Of a DNA stretch of 64,000 nt, positions 7,035 through 64,000 are shown piece by piece. The notes beneath the pieces are model-generated. The model was not told the DNA's origin and did no database searches. It saw only the letters and a list, made by a program, of their open reading frames with translations. The stretch lies in IMG/VR virus record IMGVR_UViG_3300042462_000099, positions 7,881 to 71,880 of that record, one strand, 5' to 3'. The DNA is from a virus (Duplodnaviria > Caudoviricetes). Each line of letters begins with the position of its first letter. Position 1 is the stretch's first letter. The position numbers were made by a program, and so were the translations under genes.

Positions 7035-7696
7035 TATACCTCTTCCAAAGTAAGAGATACATTCCAGTAATCAAAGTTCTTTCCACGCTTTTCTACAGTG
7101 TAAGAAAAATCTGAAAAGAACATTTCAACTAGTTGGCTGTACTGTGGTAAGTGTGCATATTTGTTTATGCTTGGTTGACCAACATTATTAAAGTTAGAGT
7201 ACTTGTCGTATGCTAAGAATACCCAGAAAGAACCCTTGTGATTTTCATACCAATCAAGCATTTCAACCCCGCCTGCTCCAGCATCAGTTGTAAACTGTAA
7301 TGGCTGATTTTTATTTCCAACTAGATCAGTAGTAGCCAAACCAGTAGTCATGTTAAAATCTGGAGAATCTAAAAATGATCTTGAAGGAATCATATTCCAA
7401 GATGTGGAGATAGTTAGTTTATCTGCAATGTGATATGAACGTGTTCTGCCATTAATCATTCTTTCTTTCTTTTCAATTCTTGTTGTTTTAAAATCCAGAG
7501 GCCCTCTATTATCGTCTGTTAGAATTAAAAAGTTATCGTAAAGGTTTGCATCTGTTACATCTCCATGCAAGGAGTCTACCTCTAGACCATTTGGTATATA
7601 AACTCCATTGCTTAGGGTTCCAGAATTCTCTGACCATAGCATAGCCTGTGGTCTGTTGTAGTACTTTCTACCTAGCATGTATGATGATGATGCCAT
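7034..7696 (-). CDS. distal tail (Dit-like) protein
   Basis: Immediately follows the tape measure; ends with the WNVSLTLEEV pattern; ERMINGRTR motif. Confidence 0.65.
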   Translation of the reverse strand: MASSSYMLGRKYYNRPQAMLWSENSGTLSNGVYIPNGLEVDSLHGDVTDANLYDNFLILTDDNRGPLDFKTTRIEKKERMINGRTRSYHIADKLTISTSWNMIPSRSFLDSPDFNMTTGLATTDLVGNKNQPLQFTTDAGAGGVEMLDWYENHKGSFWVFLAYDKYSNFNNVGQPSINKYAHLPQYSQLVEMFFSDFSYTVEKRGKNFDYWNVSLTLEEV

Positions 7697-10600: not shown

Positions 10601-13600
10601 ACAGCCTTAAACAAAGCCTTGATTCCACCTTCAGCATCAATTGCTGCAAGGCGAACATTCTTAAGTCTTGTCATCAAGTCATCAATTGGGGTTGCTGCTC
10701 GTTCTGCTTTTTCTACAGGAGTAGTCACGCCTGGAATTACTGGGCCTTTATTTGCTGCCTTAGAATTTCCAACATTCCATGCTTCGGCTTCACCAGTCTT
10801 AGCAATTGCTGCTCTTTGCTCTACTCCACGATCTCCAGTAAGCCTTGCTATTCCCTTTGCAGCCATGTAAGCATCTATAACATTTGAATCACCAGAAGCA
10901 ACAAAGTCCATCATCATACTTGTTGTTATTTGTTTTCCATCTGCTCCGACAAGCATATTCCAGTTTGCAAGAATGGCTTGCATTGTAGGGTCACCCGCTT
11001 TTGCAGCGTCTTGAACCTCAATTTTTGTTAATATACTTTTTGCTTTACCATCTTTAGTTTTAAAACCATCAAGCACTTTTTTAAATGCTGCAACTTTTTT
11101 AATTTTATTAATACCATCAACATTTATATCAACAGTTGTTCCGTACTTAGCCTTCATGTTTGAAAGAATATTAATTGCTTCTGTATTTTCTTTAATATTT
11201 ACTTTATTGTCTGGATGAGAGATATACGCAACAGTTGTTTGTATTGTATTATCTGTTGCTCCACCCTTCATAAGCATTTGCATAACAACATTTGCTTCTG
11301 CTGTACTACCAGTAGCAGCAACAAGCAGTTCAAAGTCTGCAACAAATGTTCCACCTGATTCAGCAAGATCTGCTAATCTTATTGCAACAAGTGGATCAAT
11401 AGACCCTGCTGCAAGATCTAGTTGAAGAACAGTTTTAAAACTACTGTCTTTCATTCCTTCAAGTCTTGTTACAGAATTATCAGCAAAAGTCTTCATAGCA
11501 CTTGAAGAGTCTTTATATCTTTCTCCTACTGAAAGTTTTATTGCATCATTAAAGGCATCGCCTCCAACATTTGCTTTAGCAGCAACCAAAGAGTCTAGGT
11601 CTGCCTTGTTCTGAGCAGTAAGTAGTCCAAGATCCCTTGCTCTGTCTTTTTCAATTTGTGCTCTTTCTGCATCGGTTTTTGCCATTGCTAGTTTGATGTC
11701 GTACTGCTTATTAAGAGCATCTACAGCATTATTTCCACTCTCTACCGCAGAAATTGCCATCTGAACTGCTGCTGAATCAAGTTTTGCTTTTTCTTGTCCT
11801 GCTTTATTCCAGTCCCAAAGAAGTTTTGCACCAACTGCAATTGTGGCAACTGCTGCTGCCCAGCCAACTGGATTCCAGAAGTTTGTTGCTGCTGTGGCTG
11901 CAAGAACGCTTGCTGTTCCTGCTGTGGCTGCTGTGGCTGCTGCAGCACCTCCTGCAATTCCAATACCTAGTCCAACTCCTCCTGCAACAGCCCCTGTTTT
12001 TAATAGACTTCCAGCATCTTTACCAGGTTGCTTACCCCAAAGTTCCCCTCTAGAAGTATCTCCTGTTTTTTCAAGAGCATCTGTTGCACCCTTAACTGTT
12101 CTTGCTTGAATTTCTGCAATTATTTGTAATGGATTGTTTAATAAATCTTGTCCATTGGGGCCTAGTAGTTCTGACAGTTCTCCAGTAATTACTGCTGGTA
12201 TTTCATAACTACCTAGTTGTTCTCCAAGTGCAGAAGCAATACTTCTTGCTTGATCCATACTCAATACACCTTGGCTTATTGCTGTTCCAAGTTGTAGTGC
12301 TATATTTTTTCCTATATCTGTTTGAGATGCTCCAGTTTTTGCTTGAACATTAATATCTTCTAAAAGTGCTTTTCCTGGACCAGAAGTTAAATAAGTTTGT
12401 CCAGACTTTCTTGTTTCTGCATCTACTCCCGAAGCCATGTCTGCTCTTCGTTTATTTGCAGACTCTGTAGCACTTACTGTTTTTGTTATTTTAGAAATTT
12501 CTATAAGTTTATCTGTTGTCATGGACATAGAGTTACCTAAAGCAACGCCTTCTTTTCTTGCATTGTCCATAGCCTTTCTATAAAGCCATATTGCTCCGAT
12601 CACGGCTGTTAGTGCAACTCCAGCAGCAATCCAAGGATTCATAAGCATTGGAAGCATGCCTGCTACTGCTGAGGCTGCGAATAAGCCTGTTGTAACCTTT
12701 GCGTCTGCTCCTCCCATCATGGCACCCATTGCAACTGCGCCAATCGCTCCTGCTGCAGGGCCTGCTATCTTGCCAACTTTTTCTTGTCTTGCTGCTAAAT
12801 TTAATTTGCGAGTTTGTTTATTCTCTGCCTTTTGCTTTCTTGCTGCTGCTTCTTCTTCACGCTGTTTAGTTAGTTCAGCACGACGCTCACGATCTGCCCT
12901 ATTTTTTTCTTCATTGGCACGGATCTCTGCAGTTCTTGCTGCTTTTGCTTCTGCTGCTGCTTTGTCTTGTGCTGCTTTAAGACTTGCTGCTCTTGCTTTT
13001 TCTTGTAATTTTTCATGGTCACGAAGAGCCTGTGCTAACTGTGCTTCTGTTGCACCAGCCTTTTGTAGTGCAACTCTTTTTTCAATCCAGGTATCGCCCT
13101 TAGCCTTGGCTCGCATAGTTTGTCTTGGCATATCTTTCTTTGCAACAACTGAGGTTCCTGCTGGCTGATTAATAACTCTTGTATCATCTGCTGTTCCGCC
13201 AACTCTTTTTACCTTACCAGTTTTTGCTTTTCCAGAAGTTGCTTTTATTTCTTTTATTTTACCAGTTTTATTATCTCGAAGTCCTTCTCCAGGAGTAGCA
13301 AGAATAAATTCACCAGTTCTTTTGTTTAAACGTAAATCAATAAGTTGCTTATATTTTTTTATGTCATCGTAAAAAGTCTTGCCTTTTCCAGTTCTTTCAT
13401 CTATAATAAACTTTGCTGCCTCGGCTGCATATTTTGTTTCTGGGTTGATCATTCCAGACAATCCTGGTGGTGCCTTTTTAGTTTCTAGAAGTGCATGGGC
13501 TTTTAATTCTAACTCTGCTGCTTTAGAAACCAGCATTGCTTCTTGTGCTGTAATTGGATGTCTTCCAGAAGCAAGGAATTTTGCAGCAGCGTTATACTCT

Positions 13601-16600
13601 CCATTTTTTGTGCCTAAAAGATTTCCATTTTTCTTATCCCAGGCTATTAAATTTGATGTTCTTTTTTCGGTTAAATAGTTGTTTACTGCACCTAAATCAC
13701 CAAAAGCGTAACCCTTATTCCATTTCTCTGCAGCCCTTGCAATTGAACTTTGTCCCTTTTCTGCTTTTCCTGGTTCTACGTGTGCTGCTTCTATTTGAAC
13801 AAGTCTTGCTATTTTTCCAGAATCTAAGTTTGGATACTTCTCTTGCATATAAGCCTTTAACTTAGAAACTTCTCCTTGTGCTCCAAGGGCTTTGTTCTTT
13901 GCCTCTGTCTCTGCTAATACTGCCTTATACTCTTTGTACCCTTCAATATTATTAGACTTGAATCCACCAGCAGCCTTTGTTGGTCCACCAATTGTTAAAC
14001 GCTCTTTTAGTTTGCTCCAATTAGCAAACGATCTGTCTGATACTCTTTTACCCTTTTGAGAATCAACATCAAAAAGATATCTCATGCTTTGCTTTAGATG
14101 ATCAGCAGTTGCGCCCTTTTCTCCTTTACGGCCAGTAAAGATTAGTCCATCTGGGCCTTGAACTGTTTGGGCTGCCAGGTTCTTAAGAAATAGGGGTTTC
14201 TTTTTTCTCCAGGCTTCTCTTGTTTTTTCTGTAATTTCTGGGCCACGAACAACGTCGTCCATATATCTTTCAAGGTCAACTACGTGTGGAGGCATAGCCT
14301 TTGCTTGTGTTGGGCCATCTGGAATAACTCCAGCCATGTGACCACTTACCCAGAAATCTTGATTAGCGTGTCCAGCCTGTCTTTGCTTTAACTGTTGCTC
14401 TTCAAACTTTTTAATAATCTCTGCTGCTGTTGCTTGTTTTGGTGTTGAAGGTTTGACTGCAGAATGAACTGCATGATATTGCGACCAGTCAACCTTAAGA
14501 CCTTGTTCAAGTCTTTTAATCATTCCATTGTAGACAACTTTTTCGTCTTTATTTAATCCGAACCCCTTTACAGTTTGTCTTAGTTTTGGAAGAACTGTTT
14601 CAATCTCTGTTCGCATTGCAGTGTTATATTCTGCTGCGGACATACCCTTTGGAATTGGTAATGTTGATTCAGCAAAGAACCTTCTTGCCCCACCCTTTTC
14701 TCCCAACAGATTAATATTGGCCATCTTTTCCATTGAAAGCATATCTTTTGGTTTTGCATAATCTCTTCCAAGTTTCTGGGTGGCTGCCTGAAATACTCCC
14801 ATGGTGCCAGCATCTGCAAGTTTATTTCCAGATAGATTACCTCCATGAAGGTCTCTATCTCCTCTTAGATTTGCTGCTACTAACTGTCTAAAATATTCTT
14901 CCTTGCTAAACTTGCCACCCATATTCTTTTCAGCAAATTTAGCATCAAATGGGGATTCAAGAACAATAATTTTTCTTTTTCCAGAAGGATCTAAGGGATC
15001 ACGCATTGTTCTAATTGTTTGCATTGGTGCATCAAGGCCGTGTGCCTGTCTTGCTATCACCGTTGCTCTTTGTTCTGCAAGAGCAGCCTTTTCGTCTACC
15101 ATTGGCTTTACAAATACTTTATCTCCATTTGGCTTTTGATACATACCGCCAATACCAGGAACTGGGAAACTTCTTCCAGATGAGTCTGCAATTTTTCTAC
15201 CAAAGTCAGTTGGGGCCATTGATCCAAATCTACTATTTTTTGCTGCTTCTGCAACTTGCTTTAGTGTTAACTCTTGCTGCATTCTCTTTGTTACTGCATC
15301 AAAAGACTTTGGCATTCCTAAAAATAGTGGTTGAGAAGAAGATTGAGATTTTCTATATGCATCAATTTGTGGTTTAATCCAAGGATACTTGTCCAAGTTT
15401 CTTTGACGTTGTTCAGCACGTCTTGCATCTTGTGCTTTTCTAATTGATTCTAATTGAGGAGAAAGCGTTCTTGATACCTGTGCTCCCTTTGCTGCTGGCA
15501 ACTTTCCAGCCATATGTCCTGGAACACTATCGGTAAATATTGCCTTAAGAAGTCCATGATGCTTTTCAGTTAACTTTGCTGGAATAACTGCTTCACCTGG
15601 AGCAAGCATTGCTGGTTGAATATCTCCAGCACCCTTTGGTCCTGGAACTGTTAGAACTCCGTCTTTATACTTTTTTACTTTTAGTCCAGCCTTGGCTGCC
15701 GTTGCTCCTGCTTTACCACCTGTAAATAGCCCAGGGCTTGATGCTGCAAGAGTTCTTGCTTGAGATGCTGCTGTCTGATAAGCCCTTCCAAGTGCTTCTA
15801 CGGATGCTCTTTCTACTCCAAATACCTGAATAAGTTTTTGATGAGCACCGTGAAGTGCATTAGACTGTACTGTATTTTCAAGTTGATCTTGAGTTAAATA
15901 GTCAAACCCTGAACCAAGTAACTTAGTCTGCCCATTTAGTTTAGCAATTCCACCACGAAGCATTGCAAAGAATTTGATTACGTTTGCAACACCGTTAGCA
16001 AGCAAACCAAATGTCATAAGAACTACTGGTCCTATTCCGCCAAGTACTGCAAGCATAATGGTTACAAACTTCTTTGTTCCATCACTAAGATTATTGAACT
16101 TCTCCATTAACCCGCCAAAGAATTTAACTACTGGAGTAAGGGCTTCTAGGAATGCCTTTCCTAAAGGCATTATTTCTACTTTAAACTTTTCAATTGCTGC
16201 CTGGAATTTTACTCCGACTGCATCTTCAACTTTTCCTAATTCTCGCTCAGATAGGATTGCAAGATCTTGAACAGATGCTCCAGCAAGTGCTAATGTTCTA
16301 CTTGCTTGAGATCCATCTGCTGTTATATTCTGAAATAAAGTTGATAGACGAGCAAACTGGAACTTACCGAACATCTGCTCAATTGCTCTTGCACGGTTAA
16401 GTGGATCAAGAGTATCAAGTGCTTGTGCAAAACCAATAACAGTATTCTTTAGATTTCCAGCATTCTGTTCAACAATTCCTTGTACGTTAATACCCATACC
16501 AGCAAGCATTGCTGATGCTTTCTTGGTTGGGTTAATTAATGCTGCAAGACCAGACTTTAGTGCGTTGGCACCTTCTGATGCATTAATTCCGCCTTCCTTC

Positions 16601-17721
16601 ATTGCTGTAAGGAAGAATGCAAGATCTTCTACAGAACCACCAAGTTGCTTAACAACTGGTGCTGCTTTAGGAATAGCAATTGTTAAATCTTCAATAGAAA
16701 GGACTGTCTGGTTTTCTACTGCGTTAAGGAAATCAATTTTCTTTGCAAGGTCTTCTGCTGCGATGCCAAAAGAGTTAGTCAATGATATTGTTGTTTCAAG
16801 TGCTTGCTGTTGATCAACTTGACCAAGAACTGCTAACTTAGTTGCTGTCTTTACTTGCTCTTCAAGTGCCCTGCCAGAAAAACCTGCAGCAGCAGCCTTG
16901 GCTGCCATTGCCATTGTGTCTTTTACTGATAGACCAAACTTTGTGTACTCAACACCAATTCGTTTAATATTTTCAACTGCTGTATTTGCCTCTGCGTCAG
17001 AGGTCATCATGTTTCCATAAACACGTCTAAAGTTAACTGTTTCTTTTTCTAGTTCTCTAAAAGCCTTCGATGCTGCACCCATAAACATCATTAATGGTAT
17101 TGTCAAACCAACCATTAACTGACGACCAGCCCACTGCATATTCTTACCGTAATTTAGAAGGCTAGTAGAGCCTTGCTTTAATAATTGATTAAGAAGTTGC
17201 TGTCTCTGTGCTGCGTATTGTATGCGTGTACCAAGTTCTGTAAACTTACCATTAGTCATTGCAAGGGTTCTTGGCATTACCCTGATCGCATCGACAAGCC
17301 CTCCGTTAGCCTTTGCCAACTGAATATACTGAGACTGAATTGCCTTTACTCTGTCACGTCTTGCACGGTTAAAGATTTCACGCTCTGCTGCAAAAGCACG
17401 ACTAAAAACCTTAGTGTTGGCAGTTGCAGCAGCAGCGGAATATCTGAAGTATTGCTTAAGGCTTAACTGGTTTTTTTCTAGTGCAGAGGTGAAAGCATGT
17501 GTACTAGTTTGCGCCCTAATCTGACTTGCAGAAAACTGCCCAGTCGCATTTATAGACTGAAGCATTGCAGCATTTAAACCCTTTTGGGCATTTGCTGCTG
17601 CAACGTTACCTTGTGCTAGGGATTGATGAAATTTACTAAGTGCTCCTTGGAGTCTACGCAACTCTGCCAGCGCACCAGCGGTGTCAAAATGTATACCTAT
17701 GTTAGCATTTACATCAGACAC
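7696..17721 (-). CDS. tail tape measure protein with internal cargo domains
   Basis: 3341 aa, Ala/Lys-rich helical; TP901-type TMP core (GINASEGANALKSGL); hydrophobic segments; MLAPGEAVIP and MLTPGEFVM motifs; follows chaperone genes. Confidence 0.93.
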   Translation of the reverse strand: MSDVNANIGIHFDTAGALAELRRLQGALSKFHQSLAQGNVAAANAQKGLNAAMLQSINATGQFSASQIRAQTSTHAFTSALEKNQLSLKQYFRYSAAAATANTKVFSRAFAAEREIFNRARRDRVKAIQSQYIQLAKANGGLVDAIRVMPRTLAMTNGKFTELGTRIQYAAQRQQLLNQLLKQGSTSLLNYGKNMQWAGRQLMVGLTIPLMMFMGAASKAFRELEKETVNFRRVYGNMMTSDAEANTAVENIKRIGVEYTKFGLSVKDTMAMAAKAAAAGFSGRALEEQVKTATKLAVLGQVDQQQALETTISLTNSFGIAAEDLAKKIDFLNAVENQTVLSIEDLTIAIPKAAPVVKQLGGSVEDLAFFLTAMKEGGINASEGANALKSGLAALINPTKKASAMLAGMGINVQGIVEQNAGNLKNTVIGFAQALDTLDPLNRARAIEQMFGKFQFARLSTLFQNITADGSQASRTLALAGASVQDLAILSERELGKVEDAVGVKFQAAIEKFKVEIMPLGKAFLEALTPVVKFFGGLMEKFNNLSDGTKKFVTIMLAVLGGIGPVVLMTFGLLANGVANVIKFFAMLRGGIAKLNGQTKLLGSGFDYLTQDQLENTVQSNALHGAHQKLIQVFGVERASVEALGRAYQTAASQARTLAASSPGLFTGGKAGATAAKAGLKVKKYKDGVLTVPGPKGAGDIQPAMLAPGEAVIPAKLTEKHHGLLKAIFTDSVPGHMAGKLPAAKGAQVSRTLSPQLESIRKAQDARRAEQRQRNLDKYPWIKPQIDAYRKSQSSSQPLFLGMPKSFDAVTKRMQQELTLKQVAEAAKNSRFGSMAPTDFGRKIADSSGRSFPVPGIGGMYQKPNGDKVFVKPMVDEKAALAEQRATVIARQAHGLDAPMQTIRTMRDPLDPSGKRKIIVLESPFDAKFAEKNMGGKFSKEEYFRQLVAANLRGDRDLHGGNLSGNKLADAGTMGVFQAATQKLGRDYAKPKDMLSMEKMANINLLGEKGGARRFFAESTLPIPKGMSAAEYNTAMRTEIETVLPKLRQTVKGFGLNKDEKVVYNGMIKRLEQGLKVDWSQYHAVHSAVKPSTPKQATAAEIIKKFEEQQLKQRQAGHANQDFWVSGHMAGVIPDGPTQAKAMPPHVVDLERYMDDVVRGPEITEKTREAWRKKKPLFLKNLAAQTVQGPDGLIFTGRKGEKGATADHLKQSMRYLFDVDSQKGKRVSDRSFANWSKLKERLTIGGPTKAAGGFKSNNIEGYKEYKAVLAETEAKNKALGAQGEVSKLKAYMQEKYPNLDSGKIARLVQIEAAHVEPGKAEKGQSSIARAAEKWNKGYAFGDLGAVNNYLTEKRTSNLIAWDKKNGNLLGTKNGEYNAAAKFLASGRHPITAQEAMLVSKAAELELKAHALLETKKAPPGLSGMINPETKYAAEAAKFIIDERTGKGKTFYDDIKKYKQLIDLRLNKRTGEFILATPGEGLRDNKTGKIKEIKATSGKAKTGKVKRVGGTADDTRVINQPAGTSVVAKKDMPRQTMRAKAKGDTWIEKRVALQKAGATEAQLAQALRDHEKLQEKARAASLKAAQDKAAAEAKAARTAEIRANEEKNRADRERRAELTKQREEEAAARKQKAENKQTRKLNLAARQEKVGKIAGPAAGAIGAVAMGAMMGGADAKVTTGLFAASAVAGMLPMLMNPWIAAGVALTAVIGAIWLYRKAMDNARKEGVALGNSMSMTTDKLIEISKITKTVSATESANKRRADMASGVDAETRKSGQTYLTSGPGKALLEDINVQAKTGASQTDIGKNIALQLGTAISQGVLSMDQARSIASALGEQLGSYEIPAVITGELSELLGPNGQDLLNNPLQIIAEIQARTVKGATDALEKTGDTSRGELWGKQPGKDAGSLLKTGAVAGGVGLGIGIAGGAAAATAATAGTASVLAATAATNFWNPVGWAAAVATIAVGAKLLWDWNKAGQEKAKLDSAAVQMAISAVESGNNAVDALNKQYDIKLAMAKTDAERAQIEKDRARDLGLLTAQNKADLDSLVAAKANVGGDAFNDAIKLSVGERYKDSSSAMKTFADNSVTRLEGMKDSSFKTVLQLDLAAGSIDPLVAIRLADLAESGGTFVADFELLVAATGSTAEANVVMQMLMKGGATDNTIQTTVAYISHPDNKVNIKENTEAINILSNMKAKYGTTVDINVDGINKIKKVAAFKKVLDGFKTKDGKAKSILTKIEVQDAAKAGDPTMQAILANWNMLVGADGKQITTSMMMDFVASGDSNVIDAYMAAKGIARLTGDRGVEQRAAIAKTGEAEAWNVGNSKAANKGPVIPGVTTPVEKAERAATPIDDLMTRLKNVRLAAIDAEGGIKALFKAVSGGQIGNKFNGIQQQLMGMKSGKPTQATDPTKGYNGQFIDWFTGLDKTEQAKYGKVATKKVKSGKNKGRVLDPNDPKGKKFLAKGAKVGDLALNTKGKEVAAGFDKAIIGDFNVAQIQTIRNFDQQSIVMKKLAGLGMTNTQIQRVLSDEAYTTAIATGKITDEELRINNALAVQADTRDKINNIVSQGARARQENADMARRQELQAFLASSGLSRGISEGAMTDALGDPEQLSTLLAAMDAVKNKTAGANASLQDVVDSLNEIKKNSDIKVNITKTVSEIIMGGASAAQEALGIKSRLRSRMTGSELAGYVSEKGTRPDGTTYGGVNVGAKAVANVASRMIDPTTKKAYTPEALTSLLGNKTQASVGKERSLVASQMNVANANMAQIQTKFDNISKSMNDAVDAVNADYDAREKAVQDKINKLQSDADTAISAKEDKIKKDFDDPIKKYQDKSNVLSHDLSLIDKAAEDINKKYDLQAEALQNVLSINERISREQQQQLGLADALSSGDISAAAAAVQDIRSANAGDFGNAQMDGLNQSRENDVNALTNKDGKTRTQILEEQYIISEQIYALENNPERVLLEQQIADIKTKLESDLKAAKAEQDALEPARQAAIAAAKAATEAQLKAVQAEMDAQQAIVTALAEQDASLATQEAALIAINAELDDVETFAGLTADDWERIALAAEATSEAMEKRMKDAIAAVAESTAKGAKSMADILRDINLLPSSKTIEIFTKEYKTVYVNTVATTTTVTAPTTTTTTNPTVCTAPLVSDGKGNCVKPEKPAGDYGWDNAKGWVKGGPGSANDWDFSDNSSGTEKNARDAAIAETARRIKEEAEAKAAAEALALLKAKEAAELKADRFATDFGWYGLAKGGIVPKYMSVGGFAKGTDTVPAMLTPGEFVMSKYAVDSYGVDRMKAINNGDSIGDSVYNYSINVNVKSDSNPDEIAKTVIAQIKGIDAQKIRGNRL

Positions 17722-55676: not shown

Positions 55677-56654
55677 ATGACACTTGAAGAATACAAGCAA
55701 ATGGTAGAGGCTCAACGCCTTGCCTCATTAGGTAAAGGCTTAGAAGCCCTACTGAAATCAAAAGCAATACAAGAACAAATGAAAGAAGGCAAATAATGTC
55801 AGCAAATGTTTATACAATCGAAAACCTACTTGTAGGAAAAACTTATCACTCAAAAACTCTAAAGGGTGAAATTATCTCAGCAGAAAAGTCTGATGTCTGG
55901 TACGCAGATTGCGAGTCTTATCGTGTTAAGGTACGCCCTCACTATCCCTCAGTATTTAATCTAAAAGATACATACCGAATACTTGCCGTAAAGGTTGGTG
56001 ACTAAATGATAAACTCAGTTATGTCGATACCCTGCGAGGAATGCCACTCAACAGGTTTAATCTTTTTTGGCGATAATGATAATTTTGATGTCGAAACTTG
56101 TGAATGCGATTTTGGCATTGAGCAAGACCTAAACCAATTTAACAACTAAAGAATAGGAAATAAATAAATGATAAAAGTAGAACACAAACTCCGTTTCGTT
56201 ACCGAATTTGATGAGACTCATCCAATAGCACAAGAATTCTTGCGCCTTGATGAAGTTTCTCAAATTCATCTTTTAGAATCAATGCTAAAAGATTTACTAA
56301 CTCCAAAACTAAAACCAGTGCTTGATGAAATCAATGCTAACGGGTCCTACGCAATTCTAAAGGTGGCCGAATAATGAGCGACTATTTAGACTACATTGAT
56401 GAAATCTATGAAGAATTGGTAGATGAATTTGGACACGAATCAGAAAGCGAGTGTACTCACAAATGATGACACGAAAAGACTATGTCGCAACTGCTGAAAT
56501 TCTAAAAAGTTATTCAGATTTAATTGACCAATTTACTTTTGAAGATTTAATCTATGACTTTTCAGATATGTTTTTATCAGATAACCCACGCTTTAACCCA
56601 ATGACTTTTAAAATTGCGTGTGGTGTAAATGATTTAGCAAATAGTAATTCATAA
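55677..56654 (+). other. early operon of small ORFs (55677-55796, 55796-56005, 56006-56149, 56168-56374, 56374-56466, 56463-56654)
   Basis: ORF track plus manual translation; overlapping start/stops; 56006 has CEEC/CEC; the last has the TRKDY...NPRF pattern. Confidence 0.7.
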
Positions 56655-56661
56655 TAAATAA

Positions 56662-56690
56662 AAATCCTGAGCAAGATCTAAAACTGCTCA
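56662..56690 (+). ncRNA. candidate H-type pseudoknot RNA motif, copy 1
   Basis: ATC-CTGAGCAA-GAT-ctaaaa-CTGCTCA, 8 nt after a stop codon. Confidence 0.65.
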
Positions 56691-56697
56691 AATTTTT

Positions 56698-56864
56698 TCT
56701 AGGCAATTTACCTAGCGTGTCGTCCACAGGTTATCCACAAGTCATTTAAGAAGTTATTTACGACACGCCCGAAATTTTGTGAGTTTTATCACATAGGTTG
56801 AGCGTCTTACTATTTGGAATTACTCGCCAGTAGGTAGATAAATGTCAGCCGAAGATGATAGGAT
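56698..56864 (+). promoter_or_regulatory. regulatory cassette: GACAC sites, DnaA box, CRP-type site, TGTCAG promoter
   Basis: GCGTGTCG 56715, TTATCCACA 56731-56739, CGACACGC 56761, TGTGA-N6-TCACA 56778-56793, TGTCAG-N10-TAGGAT 56843-56864. Confidence 0.8.
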
Positions 56865-56897
56865 TACATAGTAATAAGATAAAGAAAGAAGGCAGAA

Positions 56898-58259
56898 ATG
56901 ACCTCAGTAATAATAGACCAAAATGAGTTTTATCTCATTAAAGATGAAATGCGTTTTTGTTGTGATGAGTCACAATTTAAATACATTTGTAAAGCACACG
57001 GCGAAAGTATGGGTTGCTACTTTTGCGAATTTGATTACTCTAATGATTGCGAGGAACAACACTAATGGGATACATTGAGATTTTTAGAATTGACAACGAA
57101 GGCGCAGGTTGGGTAGACTTGGAGCAAGCCACGCCAGATGAGTTATTTAAGTTAGAGGTTGGATTACTTAATGAAGGCGCACTATTTACAACTAAGGAGA
57201 ACGACTAATGGAAAATGAATACCTATACGCAGTAACAGTATCGTATGACAGTAAGCCCGTACATTGGACAGGGCGTTACTCAGACGCAGTATCCGCAGTT
57301 AGCGTGTTTAATAGTTTTGAGGATTGGGGATTTGCTGATGAATACTCAACAGTTAATTTCTCAGAGCCTTCAGGAAAATTACACACTAAGACTTTCTATC
57401 GTGAAGGCAGAAGGGTAGTGAGTAAGTAATGGAAATTTTTGAGTTTAATACTTTCATAAATGTCGAGGCTGAATCCTACGATGAGGCTATTGATACATTT
57501 CAATTCCAATTAAAGTATGGAATAAATAAAGATAATGTCTATGTCGCAGACATAAATCAATTAACTAACAACAACGAAAGCGTAGAGGTATAAATAATGG
57601 GAAGCGTAACAGCAATTGGATTAGCAGATAGCGTTTTAGATTTAGAAACACAATTAGCCTATCACTTACAGGGTAATCACTACCCACCCGTACCACTTTC
57701 TATGGTACAACCTTGTATTGATGCTATTGACGCATACTATGATGAGGACTATGATAGATTTATTGCTATGCCCGAAGGCGTATTCTATAAGGGTATGAGC
57801 CACGCACCTGCCCACGCTATTGTAGACCAACACCACCTATCTTGGTTTATTGACCCAGTAGACGAATACGAGGATGAAGACTAATGATGACTTTAGCCCC
57901 CATAGATAAATGCCCTTGCGTTAAACACGATTGTAAGAATCAAGATGATTACACAAAAATGGAAGACACTTGCGAAGAGTGTTTTATGGATTGCGTAGAG
58001 ATGGATGGATAAAATGTCTGATACAATGAAAACTATGGAATTGATCAAAGCCGATAACTTAACACCAGACCAACTAATGCTTGGTGATTTAATTAAAATT
58101 GGTGATGACATCGTTGAAGTTATTTTTATTGAAAGTGATTCTACTGGAGATAACTATGACATTGAAATAGAAAATGAGTTTGGCGAAAGAGAAGTTAATC
58201 AGTATAGTTACACTGATACAATTCCTCTCTATGTTTTTGTAGATGAGTCTGACGAGTAA
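56898..58259 (+). other. early operon of small acidic ORFs (56898-57065, 57065-57208, 57208-57429, 57429-57593, 57597-57884, 57884-58012, ~58014-58259)
   Basis: ORF track plus manual translation; TAATG coupling; several Cys-rich; 57597 has HLQGNHYPP...HHL. Confidence 0.7.
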
Positions 58260-58297
58260 TAAGAATTAATTTTGTGTGCTTCCCCGCACAAAATTTT

Positions 58298-58365
58298 CTA
58301 GCGTGTCGATGTGAGATTGATCACAGATTTAAGATTTGACATTTTAAGATGATGTATGCTAAGAT
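58298..58365 (+). promoter_or_regulatory. GACAC site + CRP-type site + sigma70 promoter
   Basis: GCGTGTCG 58301, TGTGA-N6-TCACA 58310-58325, TTGACA-N18-TAAGAT; leaderless ATG 58372. Confidence 0.75.
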
Positions 58366-58371
58366 TAGTTT

Positions 58372-58515
58372 ATGACAACAAAGAAAAACGCTGAGGAATT
58401 ACGCAGACTTATGGAACTCCGTAGGTCTAACGCTGCTTCTGCCGTACCTTCTAAAAAGGCTTACAACCGTAAGAAATGTCAGTCCGAACTGCTACAATTA
58501 AAATATAACAACTAA
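58372..58515 (+). CDS. basic small protein
   Basis: MTTKKNAEELRRLMELRRSNAASAVPSKKAYNRK. Confidence 0.65.
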   Translation: MTTKKNAEELRRLMELRRSNAASAVPSKKAYNRKKCQSELLQLKYNN

Positions 58516-58531
58516 GAAAGGTCGCCCCACT

Positions 58532-58708
58532 ATGACATTCGAAAACGATGAAATCTATGATGAATACTACGCAACAACCTGCCCTGAATGTAAAGAAAAT
58601 GCCGTTGACGCATATGAAGAAAAGTGTACACACTGCTTACTTGAAGAAATGTCTTATACCTATAATGAAGACATTGCCTTAGAGATGAGCCTTGGCCTTG
58701 ACTACTAA
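58532..58708 (+). CDS. acidic Zn-ribbon small protein
   Basis: GAAAGG SD; CPEC...CTHC. Confidence 0.65.
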   Translation: MTFENDEIYDEYYATTCPECKENAVDAYEEKCTHCLLEEMSYTYNEDIALEMSLGLDY

Positions 58709-59432
58709 TACCCTTAAACTAAAAAGATCTAACGATAGAAAGGTGGCTAACCTTGTCACAAAAAATGGAAAGCAAGCCGCAATTGCCAACACTTTTGGAT
58801 TACCTGCTGGAAAGGCTTACTCGTGCCCTGGTGCTACCAGTGTTTGTGAAAGTGTTTGCTACGCAGGAAAACTTGAAAAAGTCTTCCCTTCAGTAAAGGT
58901 TAATCTATTACACAATTGGTCCCTGCTAAAAGACGCAGACTATTTAACTATGCTTAATTTAATTAGTGAGATGATTGCTGATTTTAAGGCTGATTGTATA
59001 AAGAAAGACGCCCCTATGCTATTTCGCATTCATTGGGACGGTGACTTCTTTAACGATACTTATACCACTGCCTGGTCCGATGTAATCAAACTTAATCCTG
59101 ATATTCAATTCTGGGTTTACACTCGTGTTAAGTCTGCTGCTCTCATCCTTAAGGATATTGAAAACCTGTCTCTTTACTTTAGCACTGATAGTGAGAATGT
59201 AAAAACTGGTGTTGATCTAAAAATTAATCAAGGTGTTCGTTTAGCATACCTTGCTAAGAATTTTGCTATTGGCCAAACAGATATGAAAGAAATGATTGGT
59301 AAGCCTGGTGCTAAGTGTCCTGAAAATCTAAAATCAATTCCACTTATCTCAACTAATGGAAGCGCTTGCGTTTCTTGCGGATTGTGTGTATACTCTAAAG
59401 CAGACATAGTTTTTTCTGCTACTAAGAAATGA
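58692..59432 (+). CDS. gp88-like protein (radical-SAM-related, Fe-S)
   Basis: CPGATSVCESVCYA, FRIHWDGDF, WVYTR, C-terminal CP...CVSCGLC as in the mycobacteriophage gene 88 family. Confidence 0.8.
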   Translation: MALTTNTLKLKRSNDRKVANLVTKNGKQAAIANTFGLPAGKAYSCPGATSVCESVCYAGKLEKVFPSVKVNLLHNWSLLKDADYLTMLNLISEMIADFKADCIKKDAPMLFRIHWDGDFFNDTYTTAWSDVIKLNPDIQFWVYTRVKSAALILKDIENLSLYFSTDSENVKTGVDLKINQGVRLAYLAKNFAIGQTDMKEMIGKPGAKCPENLKSIPLISTNGSACVSCGLCVYSKADIVFSATKK

Positions 59433-59761
59433 GATAAATGAAAATTGCATTTGTAATGATACTAACATATATAATCATAATTACTTTTTTTTCAAGTCCC
59501 CGCTGAAAAGTGGAGGGCCTAGAAAAATCCTAGCGCAAAACTTTTGGTTTGTCAAGCATTTAAGATGTGTTTAAGATCACACCCAAAACCCCTCCCGATT
59601 TGACATTTATGACATTTTTGTGCTACACTTATACTATAAACAAAACAAGGTAAAACTAAATAAACAGTTTCACATAGTGAGATTATCAGATAATAATTTG
59701 ATAAATGTCAGTAGGAAATGTTATACTTAGGTATTACCCAAACAGAAAAGGAAAAACAAAA

Positions 59762-59929
59762 ATGGCAGTAACAAACGCAACTTACAAGGTAGGCGACCTA
59801 TACACTTCACAGAAGTCAAAGGTAACAGGCACTATCCAAGAAATCTCACCAAGCAAGGACGGACAATCAGTTCGTATCAAGTTAGATGTCAATGGCGCAA
59901 CACGCTACACAACTTGGACAGCCAAGTAA
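59762..59929 (+). CDS. small SH3/KOW-like protein
   Basis: YKVGD...GTIQEI...VRIKL; AAAGGA SD; TGTCAG promoter upstream. Confidence 0.65.
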   Translation: MAVTNATYKVGDLYTSQKSKVTGTIQEISPSKDGQSVRIKLDVNGATRYTTWTAK

Positions 59930-59940
59930 TCTAATTACTT

Positions 59941-59968
59941 ATTCCTGAGCAAGAATTAAAAAGGCTCA
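59941..59968 (+). ncRNA. candidate pseudoknot RNA motif, copy 2
   Basis: ATTC-CTGAGCAA-GAAT-taaaaag-GCTCA. Confidence 0.65.
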
Positions 59969-60032
59969 CTTAAATGTCAGACCCCCACGCTATAATAGAT
60001 AAATACCCCACAAACAGAAAAGAGATAAAAAG

Positions 60033-60455
60033 ATGGCAAGAGCAAAAGCAATAAATGTAAAAATCCCAACAGTTCGTGTAATCGCAGGATTAGAGGAAGC
60101 ACTAACTAAGTTAGAGGCAGACTACGCAACACAAGAACAAAAAGAAGCAGAGTTCCAAACTGCTTACAAGGCTTGGCAGACAGAATTGGGAAATTGGGCT
60201 ATTGCTCATTTCTCAAATGCTGAAAACCTCCGCACCAACTATCGTTCTTGGTCAGAAACACTAAATGTTGATTTTGACATCAAGACAAAGGAAACAGACT
60301 TTCCAACAGAACCTGAAAAGGATTTTGAGGTTATTCACGGAAGCACCTACCGAGAGTCTAAGAAAGAAATTGCTAACGCAATTCGTATTCTAAAGATGAC
60401 AGATGAGGAAACAGTAAATACCTCAACCTACAACGCAATCGCTCAGTATCTATAA
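60033..60455 (+). CDS. hypothetical protein
   Basis: 140-aa ORF with own TGTCAG-N10-TATAAT promoter. Confidence 0.8.
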   Translation: MARAKAINVKIPTVRVIAGLEEALTKLEADYATQEQKEAEFQTAYKAWQTELGNWAIAHFSNAENLRTNYRSWSETLNVDFDIKTKETDFPTEPEKDFEVIHGSTYRESKKEIANAIRILKMTDEETVNTSTYNAIAQYL

Positions 60456-60464
60456 TTAGATACA

Positions 60465-60492
60465 ACTCCTGAGTATGAGTCTAAACTGCTCA
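60465..60492 (+). ncRNA. candidate pseudoknot RNA motif, copy 3
   Basis: ACTC-CTGAGTAT-GAGT-ctaaa-CTGCTCA. Confidence 0.65.
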
Positions 60493-60637
60493 ACCACGAC
60501 CACAGAAATGCGTGGCTAAATAAATAGAGTGGAGAATTCGCCAGGCTGATTAGGGCGATCATAGAAATACTATAGAGCGTCTACCCCTTAGACTGGATGG
60601 GGGACCAGTTCACACCAACTGTCAAATGAGGTGTAAC

Positions 60638-60663
60638 TACCTGAGTAAGTATCAAAACTGCTC
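60638..60663 (+). ncRNA. candidate pseudoknot RNA motif, copy 4
   Basis: TAC-CTGAGTAA-GTA-tcaaaa-CTGCTC. Confidence 0.6.
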
Positions 60664-60737
60664 CCCGCAAGGGTCCTTGACAATTGTCAGTGGCCAGTAG
60701 TATAATTAAATTAACCAACTAACAGAAAGAGGCCCCC

Positions 60738-61157
60738 GTGGACCAACCAGTAATAGATAATCACTATATGACACGAGAGTTTTTAGAAACAACTCTTGTA
60801 CAAAACAAAGAACGCATTCAACAACTTGAGGAGCACATCCAAAAAGTAACTCAGCGCTCATATCAAGATTCTGCAGATAAGAATCGTATGGTTGAATCAA
60901 TGCAAGAGTGGACCCTTGGAGAATTAGAAAACCAAGACATCACAGAAGAGCAAGCCGAAGCAATTGCAGAAATTATGGGCTTTGAATTAACAAAAGAATT
61001 CGAAGTTGAAGTTACTGTTATGTACTCAGTGACTGTTAATGCTCGTACAGAAGAAGACGCAACAAATGCAATTCACGATATTGATTTTGATACTGTTGAT
61101 TACAATTCAGATTCAATTGCTTATTTGTCATCATCAATTGACAGAGTGGATATTTAG
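60738..61157 (+). CDS. acidic coiled-coil hypothetical protein
   Basis: 139-aa ORF; TTGACA-N18-TATAAT promoter upstream. Confidence 0.8.
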   Translation: MDQPVIDNHYMTREFLETTLVQNKERIQQLEEHIQKVTQRSYQDSADKNRMVESMQEWTLGELENQDITEEQAEAIAEIMGFELTKEFEVEVTVMYSVTVNARTEEDATNAIHDIDFDTVDYNSDSIAYLSSSIDRVDI

Positions 61158-61171
61158 TAGGGGGCTACTAA

Positions 61172-61200
61172 TAAACCTGAGCACGTTTAAAAACTGCTCA
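61172..61200 (+). ncRNA. candidate pseudoknot RNA motif, copy 5
   Basis: TAAAC-CTGAGCAC-GTTTA-aaaa-CTGCTCA. Confidence 0.68.
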
Positions 61201-61223
61201 CCTTTTAATTCCCTCAAAATTTT

Positions 61224-61339
61224 CCTAGCGTGTCGGTGTGATATTTATCACATATGTTTAAGATCACATTTAAAAAATGTCCGAATTGCCCTATGTCTGG
61301 CTATACGATTTGACTTTTGTCAGCCTATGGGTGTATGAT
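61224..61339 (+). promoter_or_regulatory. GACAC site + CRP-type site(s) + TTGACT/TGTCAG promoter
   Basis: GCGTGTCG 61228, TGTGA-N6-TCACA 61237-61252, TGTCAG-N10-TATGAT 61318-61339. Confidence 0.78.
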
Positions 61340-61369
61340 TAGATTATCAACAACAGAAAGAAGGAAATC

Positions 61370-62392
61370 GTGGCTCACGATATTGAAACTCAAAACGGCA
61401 AGGCATCATTCGCATCATTCCGTGAACCTGCTTGGCACGGATTAGGTACAGTCTTTACAGAAGAAAAGACAACCGCAGAAATGTTGGAAGCAGCAAATCT
61501 AAATGGTTGGAATGTTCGTCTTGAAGATTTAGAAGCACCTACACACTTAACAAGCGATAAGCAATACCAATATGTATTGCGTACAAATCCTACAGATAAC
61601 GCTCAGACCGACATTCTTGGAATTGTTGGCGAACGCTATCACCCACTACAGAATGAAGATTTATTCTCATTCGGTGACAATATTCTTGACGGCGGGGGTC
61701 GTTGGGAAACGGCTGGCTCAATCAAGGGTGGTCGTGTTGTATTCGGTGCTTTAGCATTAGAGCGTGAAACAATTCTTGACCCTAACGGCGTGAGCGATAA
61801 GGTAAAAACTTATTTGCTCATCAACACATCACACGACGGCTCGATTGCTATTCAAGCAAGTATCACACCAGTTCGTGTTGTATGCGCTAACACTCTTAAC
61901 CTTGCTCTTGGTGGCGTAGGTCGTAAGAAGAATAAGGGCATCAAGCAATCTTTCAAGATTCGCCACACACAGACCGCTAACGGCAAGGTACAAATTGCTC
62001 GTGAAACTCTTGGTCTTGCTAATGCTTATATGGACGAATTTGATATTATGGCTAAGGCTATGATTGAAAAAGAAGTTTCTGCTAAGCAATTCAATGACAT
62101 CATTCTTGCTGCTTATGCTAAGCCAGAAAAAGATTCTAAGGGTTCAATGAAAAAGTGGGAAAATAAAGTTGATGTCATCAACGATATTTACACTGGTGAA
62201 TTTAACGGAATGATTGCTGGTAATGCGTGGGGTGCTTTCAATGCGCTAACTGAACGCCTTGACTGGTATCGTTCTGCTCGTGGTGGTTCTAACGAATCCA
62301 TTCTCGCATCAGCATCAGGATTTGACCCTGCTATTAACGCAGAAAAAAATCGTTTGCTAAAAGTTGTACAAAATGTTATGTCCTTAGCATAA
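61370..62392 (+). CDS. DUF932 / TIGR03299-like phage-plasmid protein
   Basis: MAHDIE...FASFREPAWHGLG, WETAGSIKGG, SHDGS, TPVRVVCANTL, NAWGAFNALTE. Confidence 0.88.
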   Translation: MAHDIETQNGKASFASFREPAWHGLGTVFTEEKTTAEMLEAANLNGWNVRLEDLEAPTHLTSDKQYQYVLRTNPTDNAQTDILGIVGERYHPLQNEDLFSFGDNILDGGGRWETAGSIKGGRVVFGALALERETILDPNGVSDKVKTYLLINTSHDGSIAIQASITPVRVVCANTLNLALGGVGRKKNKGIKQSFKIRHTQTANGKVQIARETLGLANAYMDEFDIMAKAMIEKEVSAKQFNDIILAAYAKPEKDSKGSMKKWENKVDVINDIYTGEFNGMIAGNAWGAFNALTERLDWYRSARGGSNESILASASGFDPAINAEKNRLLKVVQNVMSLA

Positions 62393-62397
62393 CAAAA

Positions 62398-62425
62398 AAT
62401 TCCTGAGCAAGAATTAAAACTGCTC
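62398..62425 (+). ncRNA. candidate pseudoknot RNA motif, copy 6
   Basis: AATTC-CTGAGCAA-GAATT-aaaa-CTGCTC, between a stop codon and the tRNA. Confidence 0.68.
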
Positions 62426-62434
62426 TCCATAACT

Positions 62435-62508
62435 GGAGTGTTAGCATAGTTGGTTAATGCGCTACCCTGTCACGGTAGAGATCACGGGTTCAAGTCCCGT
62501 ACACTTCG
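62435..62508 (+). tRNA. tRNA-Asp (GTC), CCA not encoded
   Basis: Acceptor GGAGTGT/ACACTTC, anticodon arm CTACC-CTGTCAC-GGTAG, T arm ACGGG-TTCAAGT-CCCGT. Confidence 0.93.
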
Positions 62509-62516
62509 CAAAATTT

Positions 62517-62655
62517 CCTAGTAAAAATATTTCTAGCGGTGTGACATTTATCACATTCTTTATTAAGATGATCAATAATATTTCCCTGATTTAGGATTAA
62601 GATGGACTTGACATTTCCCCCAAACCTTCCATTTGTCAGTCCCCTACGCTACAAT
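62517..62655 (+). promoter_or_regulatory. CRP-type site and TGTCAG-N10-TACAAT promoter (leaderless)
   Basis: TGTGA-N6-TCACA 62540-62555; promoter 62634-62655, ATG 6 nt later. Confidence 0.75.
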
Positions 62656-62661
62656 TAAGAT

Positions 62662-64000
62662 ATGACCAAACAAGTGGCAATATATGAAATGAACTACTCC
62701 TGCTCTCCTGGTGGCGTTGACTGCTGGGAAGCAACCATTCAAGGTTATGGGGAGAGCACTACCGCCTCTGACTTTAAGACTGCTGGACAGGCCCTTAATT
62801 GGGTGCTTGACAGATACCCTGACGAAATGTTAGAATTAGTAGTAACCTCACTTCCAGCCTACGAAAAGGAATATGTATGACCCAAACAGTATTAGACCCA
62901 ATGCTACAAGACTACTACTCTTGCGACCTTGCTATCTCTATTACAAATATCAAGGCTAAGAATAGACACCACGCAGAAGCCGTTATGCAAACCTTCATAG
63001 ATGAGATTGCTAAAGTAATGAATGATGAACTTAGTTGGGATGACGCCCAATGGGATATACAAGAAAATGTTTTCCTACCTGAGTTAGGTGAGTGGCATAC
63101 AAAGTGAATACCATTGACGACCTAATCAATGAAATATATGAAAGCAATTACTCTCACTTAGAGTTTGAGGAAAATATGGGTGGAGAGGCTTGCGACTGCC
63201 ATATCCACACTACACTTAATACTATCGCACATTACGCAGGAATAGAGGTAGGCTAATGTTAGGATATACTGAAACTGATATTGCAGTAATGACAGATGCT
63301 ATGGAAGATGCTATCAAATCAGGTAGACTCTCAGATGAGATAACAGATGGTTTGGAGAAGGCTATGTCCTTCTTTGATGGCCTATGGTCAGAAGGGTACT
63401 TTGACTAATGAAAGTTAGAATCAGTCTTGAACAAACCATAGATATAGATGATGCTATGTCTAATGATATAGGGTTTGAACTATACGGTCCACCTGATATG
63501 AGCACGGAAGATAAAGTAGATTATCTAATGGCTCGATTTGCTGAGGACATAGATACTATGGTAAAGTATGATGAAGTCTTGGGCAACATCTCAGTAGAAT
63601 ACATAGAGGACTAATGAACATTGAATCCCGTGAAATTACATACCGCACCATTGTTGAGCAAATCTTCTTTGAGGACGGCACAGAGTTAGTAGTAACAACT
63701 GGCTGGCCTGAAGGTGGCGGTGGAGACTTTGATGTTAAATTAGACTGGGTAGAAGGCGAAGCGCCTGAATGGGCAAAGGAGTATGTTCACAATGTGGAGT
63801 AAGTATACATTTGTTTGCGATCCTGATGAGTGTGATGCTCTCATTCAATTTACCGCCAGGGATGGCTATGGATTCCCTAATGGATCTGTAGAGATGAGAT
63901 GCCCTTGTGGTAGGAAGATGGCTTATATTAGTATTGAAGATGCTTGGGAGCCTATCATTACAGATGTGAGCAAGGTCACACCCCGTGAAGTTGTAAAAAT
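62662..64000 (+). other. early operon of small acidic ORFs (62662-62880, 62877-63107, 63104-63256, 63256-63408, 63408-63614, 63614-63802, 63792->64000)
   Basis: ORF track plus manual translation; ATGA/GTGA/TAATG coupling; last ORF is Cys-containing and truncated by the window edge. Confidence 0.7.

Follow-up and report, generated by a model that had tools for sequence, protein, structure and literature searches.

A predicted compact RNA pseudoknot placed behind stop codons and often ahead of probable RNA ends in phage genomes

Introduction

Messages of bacteria and phages can carry stabilising stem-loops at their 3' side, among them the repetitive extragenic palindromic (REP) and intercistronic hairpins, the RNase III-processed hairpins of T7 messages and the hairpins to which Rho-terminated transcripts are trimmed. 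In the 3' module of the MALAT1 and MEN-beta RNAs a triple-helical expression and nuclear retention element (ENE) is combined with a tRNA-like structure, at which RNase P cuts and leaves a protected 3' end. The Rfam family UPSK consists of small pseudoknots located 5' of the tRNA-like structure in tobamovirus and tymovirus RNAs, where they form tandem arrays and bind eukaryotic factors. In this study we describe a motif of roughly 28–30 nt, which sequence comparison predicts to be a family of H-type RNA pseudoknots. It was recognised in six copies in a 64,000-nt stretch (bases 7881–71880, in the following called the window) of the virus record IMGVR_UViG_3300042462_000099, which derives from a lake-water phage. 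A first-pass annotation of the window had described covarying pseudoknots right after early-gene stop codons, had concluded that they act as RNA structure, and had named four possible functions: a 3'-exonuclease block, a processing signal, a non-canonical terminator or a protein-binding tag. Both the observation and the main conclusion were right, and the finding is larger than could be seen from the window.

The place of the motif is that of the bacterial and phage stem-loops, directly after the stop codon, be it at the end of an operon or between two cistrons, and it swaps with plain hairpins. Those stem-loops, however, are ordinary hairpins without conserved sequence, whereas the motif has about 17 conserved letters and is found in double-stranded as well as single-stranded DNA phages. 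As in MALAT1 and MEN-beta, a compact element with predicted tertiary structure lies just upstream of an RNase P site; here it precedes a real tRNA in 47 of the 687 listed copies. These copies belong to the placement set, which comprises the window and 795 viral loci (6.94 Mb) with at least 687 unique copies and to which all placement counts below refer. The ENE is much larger than the motif and its U-rich loop clamps a genomic A-tract, whereas the phage motif would be a 30-nt H-type pseudoknot, mostly without a tRNA. UPSK elements are likewise small pseudoknots directly 5' of a tRNA-shaped RNA at a message end. They differ by their occurrence in plant RNA viruses, their tandem arrangement and their eukaryotic partners; there is no sequence likeness, and no Rfam model matched the phage motif.

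The preQ1-I aptamer and other minimal H-type pseudoknots share with the motif the size class and the strand topology (stem 1, short loop 1, stem 2, A-rich loop 3). Unlike preQ1-I, the motif is located after stop codons and not in 5' leaders, is not linked to queuosine genes, follows diverse genes, occurs up to six times per genome and has no Rfam match at E ≤ 10. The architecture alone is alike, and an assignment as preQ1-I riboswitch was rejected. Frameshift and read-through stimulators also place an H-type pseudoknot 5–6 nt behind the A-site codon, but at the motif neither a slippery site nor a conserved extension frame was apparent, the frames being judged by eye. Moreover, some copies follow a non-coding RNA and a third of them lie far from a stop codon.

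Results and Discussion

Six copies in the early region of the window

Between positions 56662 and 62425 six copies of the motif were confirmed where the first-pass annotation had located them, all on the plus strand (Table 1). The pattern CTGAGYA-N(7–16)-GCTC matched six times, compared with an expectation of 0.43 (SD 0.64), and none of 100 shuffled sequences reached six matches. The bare octamer CTGAGYAH was not enriched in the window (20 matches, 14.5 expected). When the whole 71,880-base record was searched, the same six copies were obtained on the forward strand and none on the reverse strand. A covariance model (CM) did not find any window copy beyond these six at E ≤ 1.

The register of the motif was stricter than first described. 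All six copies are arranged as CCTGAGYA-H-G-N8-CTGCTC with exactly 10 nt from CTGAGYA to CTGCTC, and neither the C preceding CTGAG nor the G that follows the 8-nt loop varies. Copy 2 represents the AAAAAGGCTC variant: AGGCTC replaces the CTGCTC of the other copies, and A thereby faces G in the inner pair of stem 2; the same variant was recurrent in other contigs. In copy 3 the pairing of GAGTA with TGCTC includes a U-G pair. Every stem-1 pairing listed earlier was correct. The copies had also been said to lack a U-tract, which applies to all but copy 1, where AAATTTTTT comes next. Copy 1 is in addition preceded by double stop codons, and copy 4 by a candidate small RNA instead of an open reading frame (ORF). 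The tRNA-Asp reported directly downstream of one copy was recovered by ARAGORN and by Rfam, starting 9 nt after copy 6.

Table 1. Coordinates of the pseudoknot copies and of accompanying features. Positions refer to the window unless a locus is given; CM, covariance model.
Feature	Position	Strand	Closing C of stem 1	Stem 1	Upstream ORF	Stop codon to closing C (nt)	Score or source	Remarks
Pseudoknot copy 1	56662..56690	+	56666	ATC/GAT	56451..56654	11	CM 47.0 bits	Loop CTGAGCAA; CTGCTC ends at 56689; AAATTTTTT after
Pseudoknot copy 2	59941..59968	+	59944	ATTC/GAAT	59705..59929	14	CM 40.6 bits	AAAAAGGCTC variant
Pseudoknot copy 3	60465..60492	+	60468	ACTC/GAGT	60033..60455	12	CM 42.9 bits	
Pseudoknot copy 4	60638..60664	+	60640	TAC/GTA			CM 39.1 bits	
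Pseudoknot copy 5	61172..61200	+	61176	TAAAC/GTTTA	60738..61157	18	CM 48.4 bits	
Pseudoknot copy 6	62398..62426	+	62402	AATTC/GAATT	61370..62392 (DUF932 gene)	9	CM 51.1 bits	
tRNA-Asp (GTC)	62435..62509	+					ARAGORN; Rfam tRNA 68.7 bits	5' end is RNase P site
Conserved candidate small RNA	60535..60637	+					nhmmer, 7 other contigs	Between copies 3 and 4
DUF2800 RNA	L031:285-445						Rfam	After pseudoknot; Rfam model excludes pseudoknot
DUF2800 RNA	L109:1616-1771						Rfam	As above
DUF2800 RNA	L248:1527-1683						Rfam	As above
Terminator-like hairpin with T-run	58275..58290	+					Terminator scan	Not a family member
Sigma-70-like promoter	60677-60706							18-nt spacer, embedded TGTCAG; downstream of pseudoknot
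Sigma-70-like promoter	61310-61339							As above
Sigma-70-like promoter	58336-58365							As above
Sigma-70-like promoter	59600-59629							As above

Two overlapping helices

According to the predicted fold, stem 1 consists of 3–5 variable pairs with an invariant closing C-G. Within its 8-nt loop CUGAGYAH, the letters GAGYA would pair with the downstream UGCUC and thus form stem 2. This leaves a loop 1 of 2 nt (CU), a junction of 1 nt and an A-rich loop 3 with a near-invariant AAA. Such lengths (2 nt over a 5–6-bp stem 2, a 1-nt junction, 5–6 A-rich nt over a 3–5-bp stem 1) satisfy the classical stereochemical rules for pseudoknots. Nested folding by itself gave weak and inconsistent structures.

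Stem 1 was assessed in 142 distinct listed sequences. Its central pairs (7-20 and 8-19) were paired in all 142, with all four Watson-Crick types represented; the outer pair was paired in 112, and the closing C-G never varied. The covariation score was 0.386 for stem 1 compared with 0.114 in shuffles, and none of 500 shuffles reached it. When the stem-1 partner was slid by 1–3 columns, the pairing fell from 95% to 23–40%.

Stem 2 was fixed by the first search pattern, and its variants were therefore sought by two other routes. For the first, a covariance model was built with stem 1 only, hence unable to favour stem-2 pairing, and was run on the loci already collected. It gave 101 distinct matches. 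Pair 3/23 was G-C in 93 and A-U in 4 of them, and pair 4/22 was A-U in 97, G-C in 1 and G-U in 1; at neither was an unpaired combination found. Pair 6/20 was C-G in 74, U-G in 24 and U-A in 2, again with none unpaired, and pair 7/19 was A-U in 92 and unpaired in 8, the latter representing the recurrent AGGCTC form.

For the second route IMG/VR was scanned for single and double variants of two stem-2 pairs, and a match was counted as motif-like when it had at least 3 pairs in stem 1 together with the AAA. The resulting fractions are signal-to-chance ratios and not totals, and a similar chance rate was assumed for each pattern. For pair 3/23 the motif-like fraction among the unique matches listed was 136 of 140 with G-C, 112 of 115 with A-U, 79 of 106 with G-U and 56 of 82 with A-C. 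For pair 4/22 it was 96 of 110 with G-C and 14 of 89 with A-C among the matches listed, and 37 of 83 with G-U in a complete scan (104 stretches). Both pairs thus gave, among the matches listed, the order Watson-Crick, wobble, mismatch.

The AAA, which was absent from the search pattern, stood directly before CTGCTC in 136–138 of 140 unique copies listed. Altogether about 17 of 30 nucleotides are near-invariant, and conservation drops off sharply beyond positions -4 to +26. Both helices are under selection and each lies within the loop of the other, which argues for an H-type pseudoknot, or for two mutually exclusive hairpins.

The conclusion that the motif works as RNA and not as a DNA site was borne out by these data. 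A site at the DNA level, be it a protein operator, a hairpin promoter or an element of an origin, would agree with the fixed spacing and the strongly conserved sequence blocks, and the window copies do lie in regulatory intergenic regions rich in other repeats. Such a site is nevertheless barely credible. Two mutually overlapping helices both covary, and only the sense strand tolerates G-U pairs: U-G made up 24 of 101 at one stem-2 pair, which would read A-C on the other strand. The orientation of the motif tracks the upstream gene, with 631 of 687 listed copies co-oriented, and its position is linked to stop codons and to the 5' ends of tRNAs on the scale of single nucleotides. The frequent G-U pairs together with the strand bias exclude a double-stranded DNA site.

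Occurrence among phages

The first IMG/VR scan, with the pattern CCTGAGYANG-N8-CTGCTC, returned at least 119 stretches, and 142 of the 144 matches listed had at least 3 stem-1 pairs. IMG/VR was scanned with seven patterns in total, and each scan gave about 100–120 stretches, a lower bound in six of the seven. Together they yielded at least 725 unique matches, and 530 were motif-like among the matches listed. As control the same pattern was run on 185,579 bacterial and archaeal genomes. Here 122 matches were obtained, of which 11 had both the stem and the AAA, and these were in metagenome bins of very different phyla. We concluded that the motif belongs to phages and that the plain cellular matches arose by chance. 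Judged from the scans, the predicted pseudoknot is a large and very widespread phage family and not a local repeat.

Among named phages, the model matched the crAss-like phage MT774384 (cr8_1) with 45.6 bits, the Christensenellales phage PV036419 with 46.5 bits and the Microviridae genome MW202581 with 36.2 bits. The last of these has 5,035 bases, annotated with capsid, scaffold, replication and DNA-binding proteins and three hypothetical proteins. A genome so small has little room for a dedicated partner protein. Searching named phages by blastn with the 6.6-kb region around the copies returned tRNA-sized and short matches only, and owing to the variable stem few isolates were recovered with a 50-nt query. 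Pseudoalteromonas phage XG4, considered as a carrier, was a false lead with no model match.

Distance to the stop codon

The 631 copies mentioned above are those with an upstream gene, for which an open frame of 60 codons or more on the same strand had to terminate no further than 300 nt ahead of the motif. Among them a hard floor exists at 8 nt for the spacing between the stop codon and the closing C of stem 1. There were 5 copies at 7 nt, 99 at 8, 71 at 9, 35 at 10, 33 at 11 and 42 at 12 nt, followed by a decaying tail, and merely 12 copies were at 0–7 nt. The motif's own sequence would allow a closer stop codon. For a 4-bp stem 1 the floor of 8 nt corresponds to a 5-nt spacer, and the peak at 8–9 nt to a 5–6-nt spacer. 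With the preceding codon in the A site, the closest position that escapes unwinding has a 5-nt spacer, as given by the position of the ribosomal helicase, and the spacers of frameshift stimulators are 5–9 nt.

This geometry could mean that the element is directed at the ribosome, standing at the entrance for the mRNA when the A site is occupied by the stop codon and modulating termination, read-through, recycling or re-initiation. The distances peak exactly at the floor, the 5–6-nt spacer is that of frameshift and read-through stimulators, and 280 of the 631 copies (8–12 nt, 4-bp stem 1) fall in the range of recoding spacers. Hosts of several phyla are likewise consistent with a universal target such as the ribosome. 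We consider this explanation quite unlikely. Copy 4, as well as the copies that follow the small RNA in seven other contigs (see below), have no ORF before them; 207 of the 631 listed copies are more than 30 nt from the stop codon; copy 1 follows double stop codons; and no conserved extended frame through the motif was apparent by eye, without a formal scan. A floor with a decaying tail is equally expected if the structure must not be melted and the genomes are compact.

Distances that place the UGA of the loop in frame seemed to be under-represented about two-fold over the first two codon steps and not further out, which we do not count as a finding. In the crAss-like phage MT774384 (locus L245:1291-1524) the TAA of the annotated ORF lies inside the loop (CCTGAG-TAA-G), and the ribosome must unfold the structure there.

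The upstream genes were diverse. Among 145 of them the commonest PHROG families accounted for 21 and 12 genes and most genes matched no family. No association with an upstream gene was seen beyond two clades. The 12 genes belong to an Hsp20-like family (phrog_432; e.g. L118:2914-3333, L029:5007-5426 and L066:9290-9709). In the Hsp20-like copies inspected the pseudoknot is followed by a small hairpin of the TCCC-TTCG-GGGA type and then by the ribosome-binding site of the next gene.

RNA elements directly downstream

The same-strand tRNAs that follow 47 listed copies start 2–14 nt downstream. They represent 14 named amino-acid identities and one that was left unassigned by ARAGORN. Of the 47, 24 are tRNA-Asp, largely from one syntenic clade that includes the DUF932 – motif – tRNA-Asp arrangement of the window. 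A tRNA within 40 nt upstream was found for just 7 listed copies.

A regular expression for hammerhead ribozymes gave six matches downstream and one upstream of the motif, one of the six looking spurious. The other five were convincing type III hammerheads; they start right where the motif ends and would cleave 6–13 nt past it. At the Rfam gathering threshold these neighbouring hammerheads were not called. One, that of locus L590, was recovered at E ≤ 1, matching Hammerhead_3 with E = 8.6e-6 and 33.3 bits, under the gathering score of 48.5. The DUF2800 RNA (RF02960, 124–160 bits) starts 1 nt past the pseudoknot in all three loci where it is present.

The candidate small RNA ahead of copy 4 has a conserved core beginning with TTCGCCAGGCTGATTAGGGCGATCATAGAAATACTATAGAGC, followed by a variable hairpin, and gave no Rfam match at E ≤ 10. 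In the seven other viral contigs in which it was found by nhmmer, a pseudoknot comes after it in all seven and directly before it in four. The pseudoknots after it lack, like copy 4, a preceding ORF. Lake metatranscriptomes offered evidence in the form of assembled contigs that cover parts of the region, where bins without contigs prove nothing. The candidate small RNA sits in the bin of highest RNA-contig depth in runs X17 and X18, which is a weak hint.

The close contact with following RNAs raised the question of an RNA-processing element, either a very small self-cleaving ribozyme or an acceptor-arm mimic serving as substrate of a universal host endonuclease such as RNase P or RNase Z, which would split the message from the following RNA. 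About 17 near-invariant nucleotides of 30 within covarying stems is a pattern typical of ribozymes and aptamers. The motif adjoins the 5' edge of tRNAs, of the DUF2800 RNA (1-nt gap in three of three) and of the small RNA (0–8 nt), the commonest base after stem 2 is A (93 of 140 listed), and a phage partner is not required, since the motif is found in Microviridae. Yet a neighbouring tRNA or hammerhead already supplies a cutter, which makes a second one redundant, and to our knowledge there is no natural self-cleaver as small as the motif. The loop CUGAGYA deviates at the core G of the hammerhead CUGANGA, and no Rfam ribozyme model matched; the hammerhead and other known ribozymes were accordingly rejected. 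A tRNA-like acceptor arm of the turnip yellow mosaic virus (TYMV) type or an RNase P minihelix was rejected as well, because NCCA followed merely 15 and ACCA 13 of 159 listed copies. The stacked helix of stems 1 and 2 would have about 9–10 pairs where about 12 are required for a tRNA minihelix, and the T-loop sequence is absent. Overall a processing element appears improbable.

Another group of observations concerns the RNA polymerase. A U-run directly after stem 2 was present in 97 of 687 listed copies, and a Shine-Dalgarno sequence (SD) with start codon within 60 nt downstream in 267 of 687; many copies thus lie inside operons. Every window copy marks the end of a short early unit and precedes the next promoter-like site, and a canonical terminator occupies the same slot in another unit of the window, after the last gene and before a CTAGCGTGTCG block (Table 1). 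Many copies are located exactly where an ORF gives way to a tRNA or non-coding RNA. Two RNA contigs from two studies end at 62404–62407, inside copy 6, whereas copy 2 is bridged by RNA contigs from three runs; these are weak hints that point in opposite directions. The motif might on these grounds act as a hairpin-less or pseudoknotted terminator or pause, or as an anti-termination or anti-Rho signal where translated RNA passes into untranslated RNA. That such an element acts on the polymerase is in our view unlikely, as 590 of the 687 listed copies have no U-run, the copies inside operons and the bridging of copy 2 speak against it, and an 8-nt floor after the stop codon is not predicted by termination or anti-termination. 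An ordinary intrinsic terminator was rejected on the U-run count (one of six in the window) and on the short, A/U-rich stems, and the terminator scan of the window called none of the six copies.

About 40 nt past the pseudoknot of one contig (L065:675-921) a sub-threshold match to the GIR1 branching ribozyme was noted (28.5 bits, E = 0.0026, gathering score 100). It contains several conserved core stretches and might represent a phage-borne group-I-like ribozyme.

Possible function

Based on the placement, our tentative preference is a compact cis-acting element that protects mRNA at its 3' end or between cistrons. The pseudoknot would be located as near to the stop codon as a terminating ribosome permits without melting it, with a spacer of 5–6 nt to stem 1. 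It would also lie just upstream of an RNA end or cut, namely RNase P cleavage at a tRNA, a hammerhead, a U-run or the leader of the next gene. After the cut, 3'-to-5' exonucleases would trim back and stall at the pseudoknot, and the upstream coding RNA or small RNA would survive with its stop codon intact. The conserved letters of the loop and of stem 2 may be needed for tertiary contacts, with loop-3 adenines in the groove of stem 1 and the CU of loop 1 along stem 2. Next to the observed structure, distribution and placement rules, we infer both the nuclease resistance and the tertiary contacts as cause of the sequence conservation.

A protector would explain the floor of 8 nt, because the knot must stay folded during ribosome termination, and the peak at the floor, because an exposed spacer should be avoided. 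As a protector needs no phage protein, it could be expected to occur in Microviridae as well as among phages whose hosts are unrelated. Copy 4 and its counterparts behind the small RNA in seven contigs point to independence from translation, and an exchange with hairpins is suggested by the terminator in the equivalent slot as well as by a relative seen in RNA contigs, which has a G/C hairpin in place of the copy-3 stretch 60459–60535. Of the four functions initially proposed, a 3'-exonuclease block or 3'-end element fits the context best. The 5-kb Microviridae genome argues against a dedicated protein-binding tag, and the U-run count together with the bridging of copy 2 argues against a general terminator.

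Several points weigh against a protector. A plain hairpin would suffice as exonuclease block, and the extreme conservation of the loop and of stem 2 across hosts is unexplained unless tertiary contacts matter. In 12 of the 631 listed copies the stop codon lies inside the motif, and ribosomes must melt those pseudoknots. A further 207 listed copies are separated from the stop codon by more than 30 nt, the outermost stem-2 pair is fairly often A-C (56 motif-like among the matches listed) and therefore dispensable, and the contigs bridging copy 2 hint that it is not a strict end.

It is possible, but rather doubtful, that the motif is a protein-independent, sequence-conserved RNA cap which stops bacterial 3'-to-5' exonucleases. 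Such a cap would be a prokaryotic counterpart of exoribonuclease-resistant RNAs (xrRNA) and of the ENE triple helix, spread over two viral realms and several host phyla and tuned to the edge of the ribosome. What agrees with these known resistant RNAs is the placement of the motif.

If the protector reading is true, the motif would be among the commonest unnamed structured RNA motifs of phages. It follows three precise placement rules: the 8-nt floor after the stop codon, the 2–14 nt before tRNA 5' ends, and the direct contact with hammerheads or other non-coding RNAs. If the reading is true, one would also learn how short messages are stabilised or delimited by phages that infect unrelated hosts and contribute no protein of their own. 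The motif would further provide a 30-nt portable part to control bacterial mRNA ends and a natural means of reading out where the 3' boundary of a terminating ribosome lies. As analysed here the placement rules are unusually exact.

Known families and literature

The first-pass annotation could not assign the motif to a known family, and this remained so with Rfam 15 (4,227 models), which gave no match to the motif even at E ≤ 10 in window positions 56500–62700. For the whole window at gathering threshold Rfam 15 returned tRNA only. In 34 other stretches (28 at gathering threshold; 5 loci and L590:880-1080 at E ≤ 1) it returned the neighbouring RNAs only. The literature was searched by motif letters, by topic and for DUF2800, and no description of the motif was found, the supplements of PMC10690425 being outside this search. 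In the available parts of PMC10690425 and PMC10879173 the motif is not described. As far as the available part of PMC10690425 tells, its supplements hold 8,495 unnamed candidate RNAs from IMG/VR, one of them overlapping a tRNA-Asp at a single site out of 27; these candidates may include the motif, listed without description. We concluded that the pseudoknot family is previously undescribed, with a prior bare listing being possible.

Surroundings in the window

The sigma-70-like promoter at 60677 matches the consensus in 12 of 12 positions and starts 14 nt after copy 4. The source record also encodes DUF932, GP88 and PASTA-domain genes, and its portal protein is 47% identical to those of 130-kb Streptomyces phages. 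An ORF of 3,341 amino acids on the minus strand (window positions 7696–17721) matched no Pfam family. It had suggested an N4-type virion RNA polymerase with hairpin promoters, which was dropped as no Pfam family was found and the portal is nearest to Streptomyces phages.

The intergenic regions past the pseudoknots and terminators (56713–56750, 58298–58335, 61226–61256 and 62513–62560) have three repeated features in common. These are a AAAATTTTC-CTAG-CGTGTCG block, TGTGA-N6-TCACA palindromes, and a perfect DnaA box, TTATCCACA, at 56731–56739. The AAAATTTTC-CTAG-CGTGTCG block was also found after the pseudoknots in loci L011, L024, L039 and L072.

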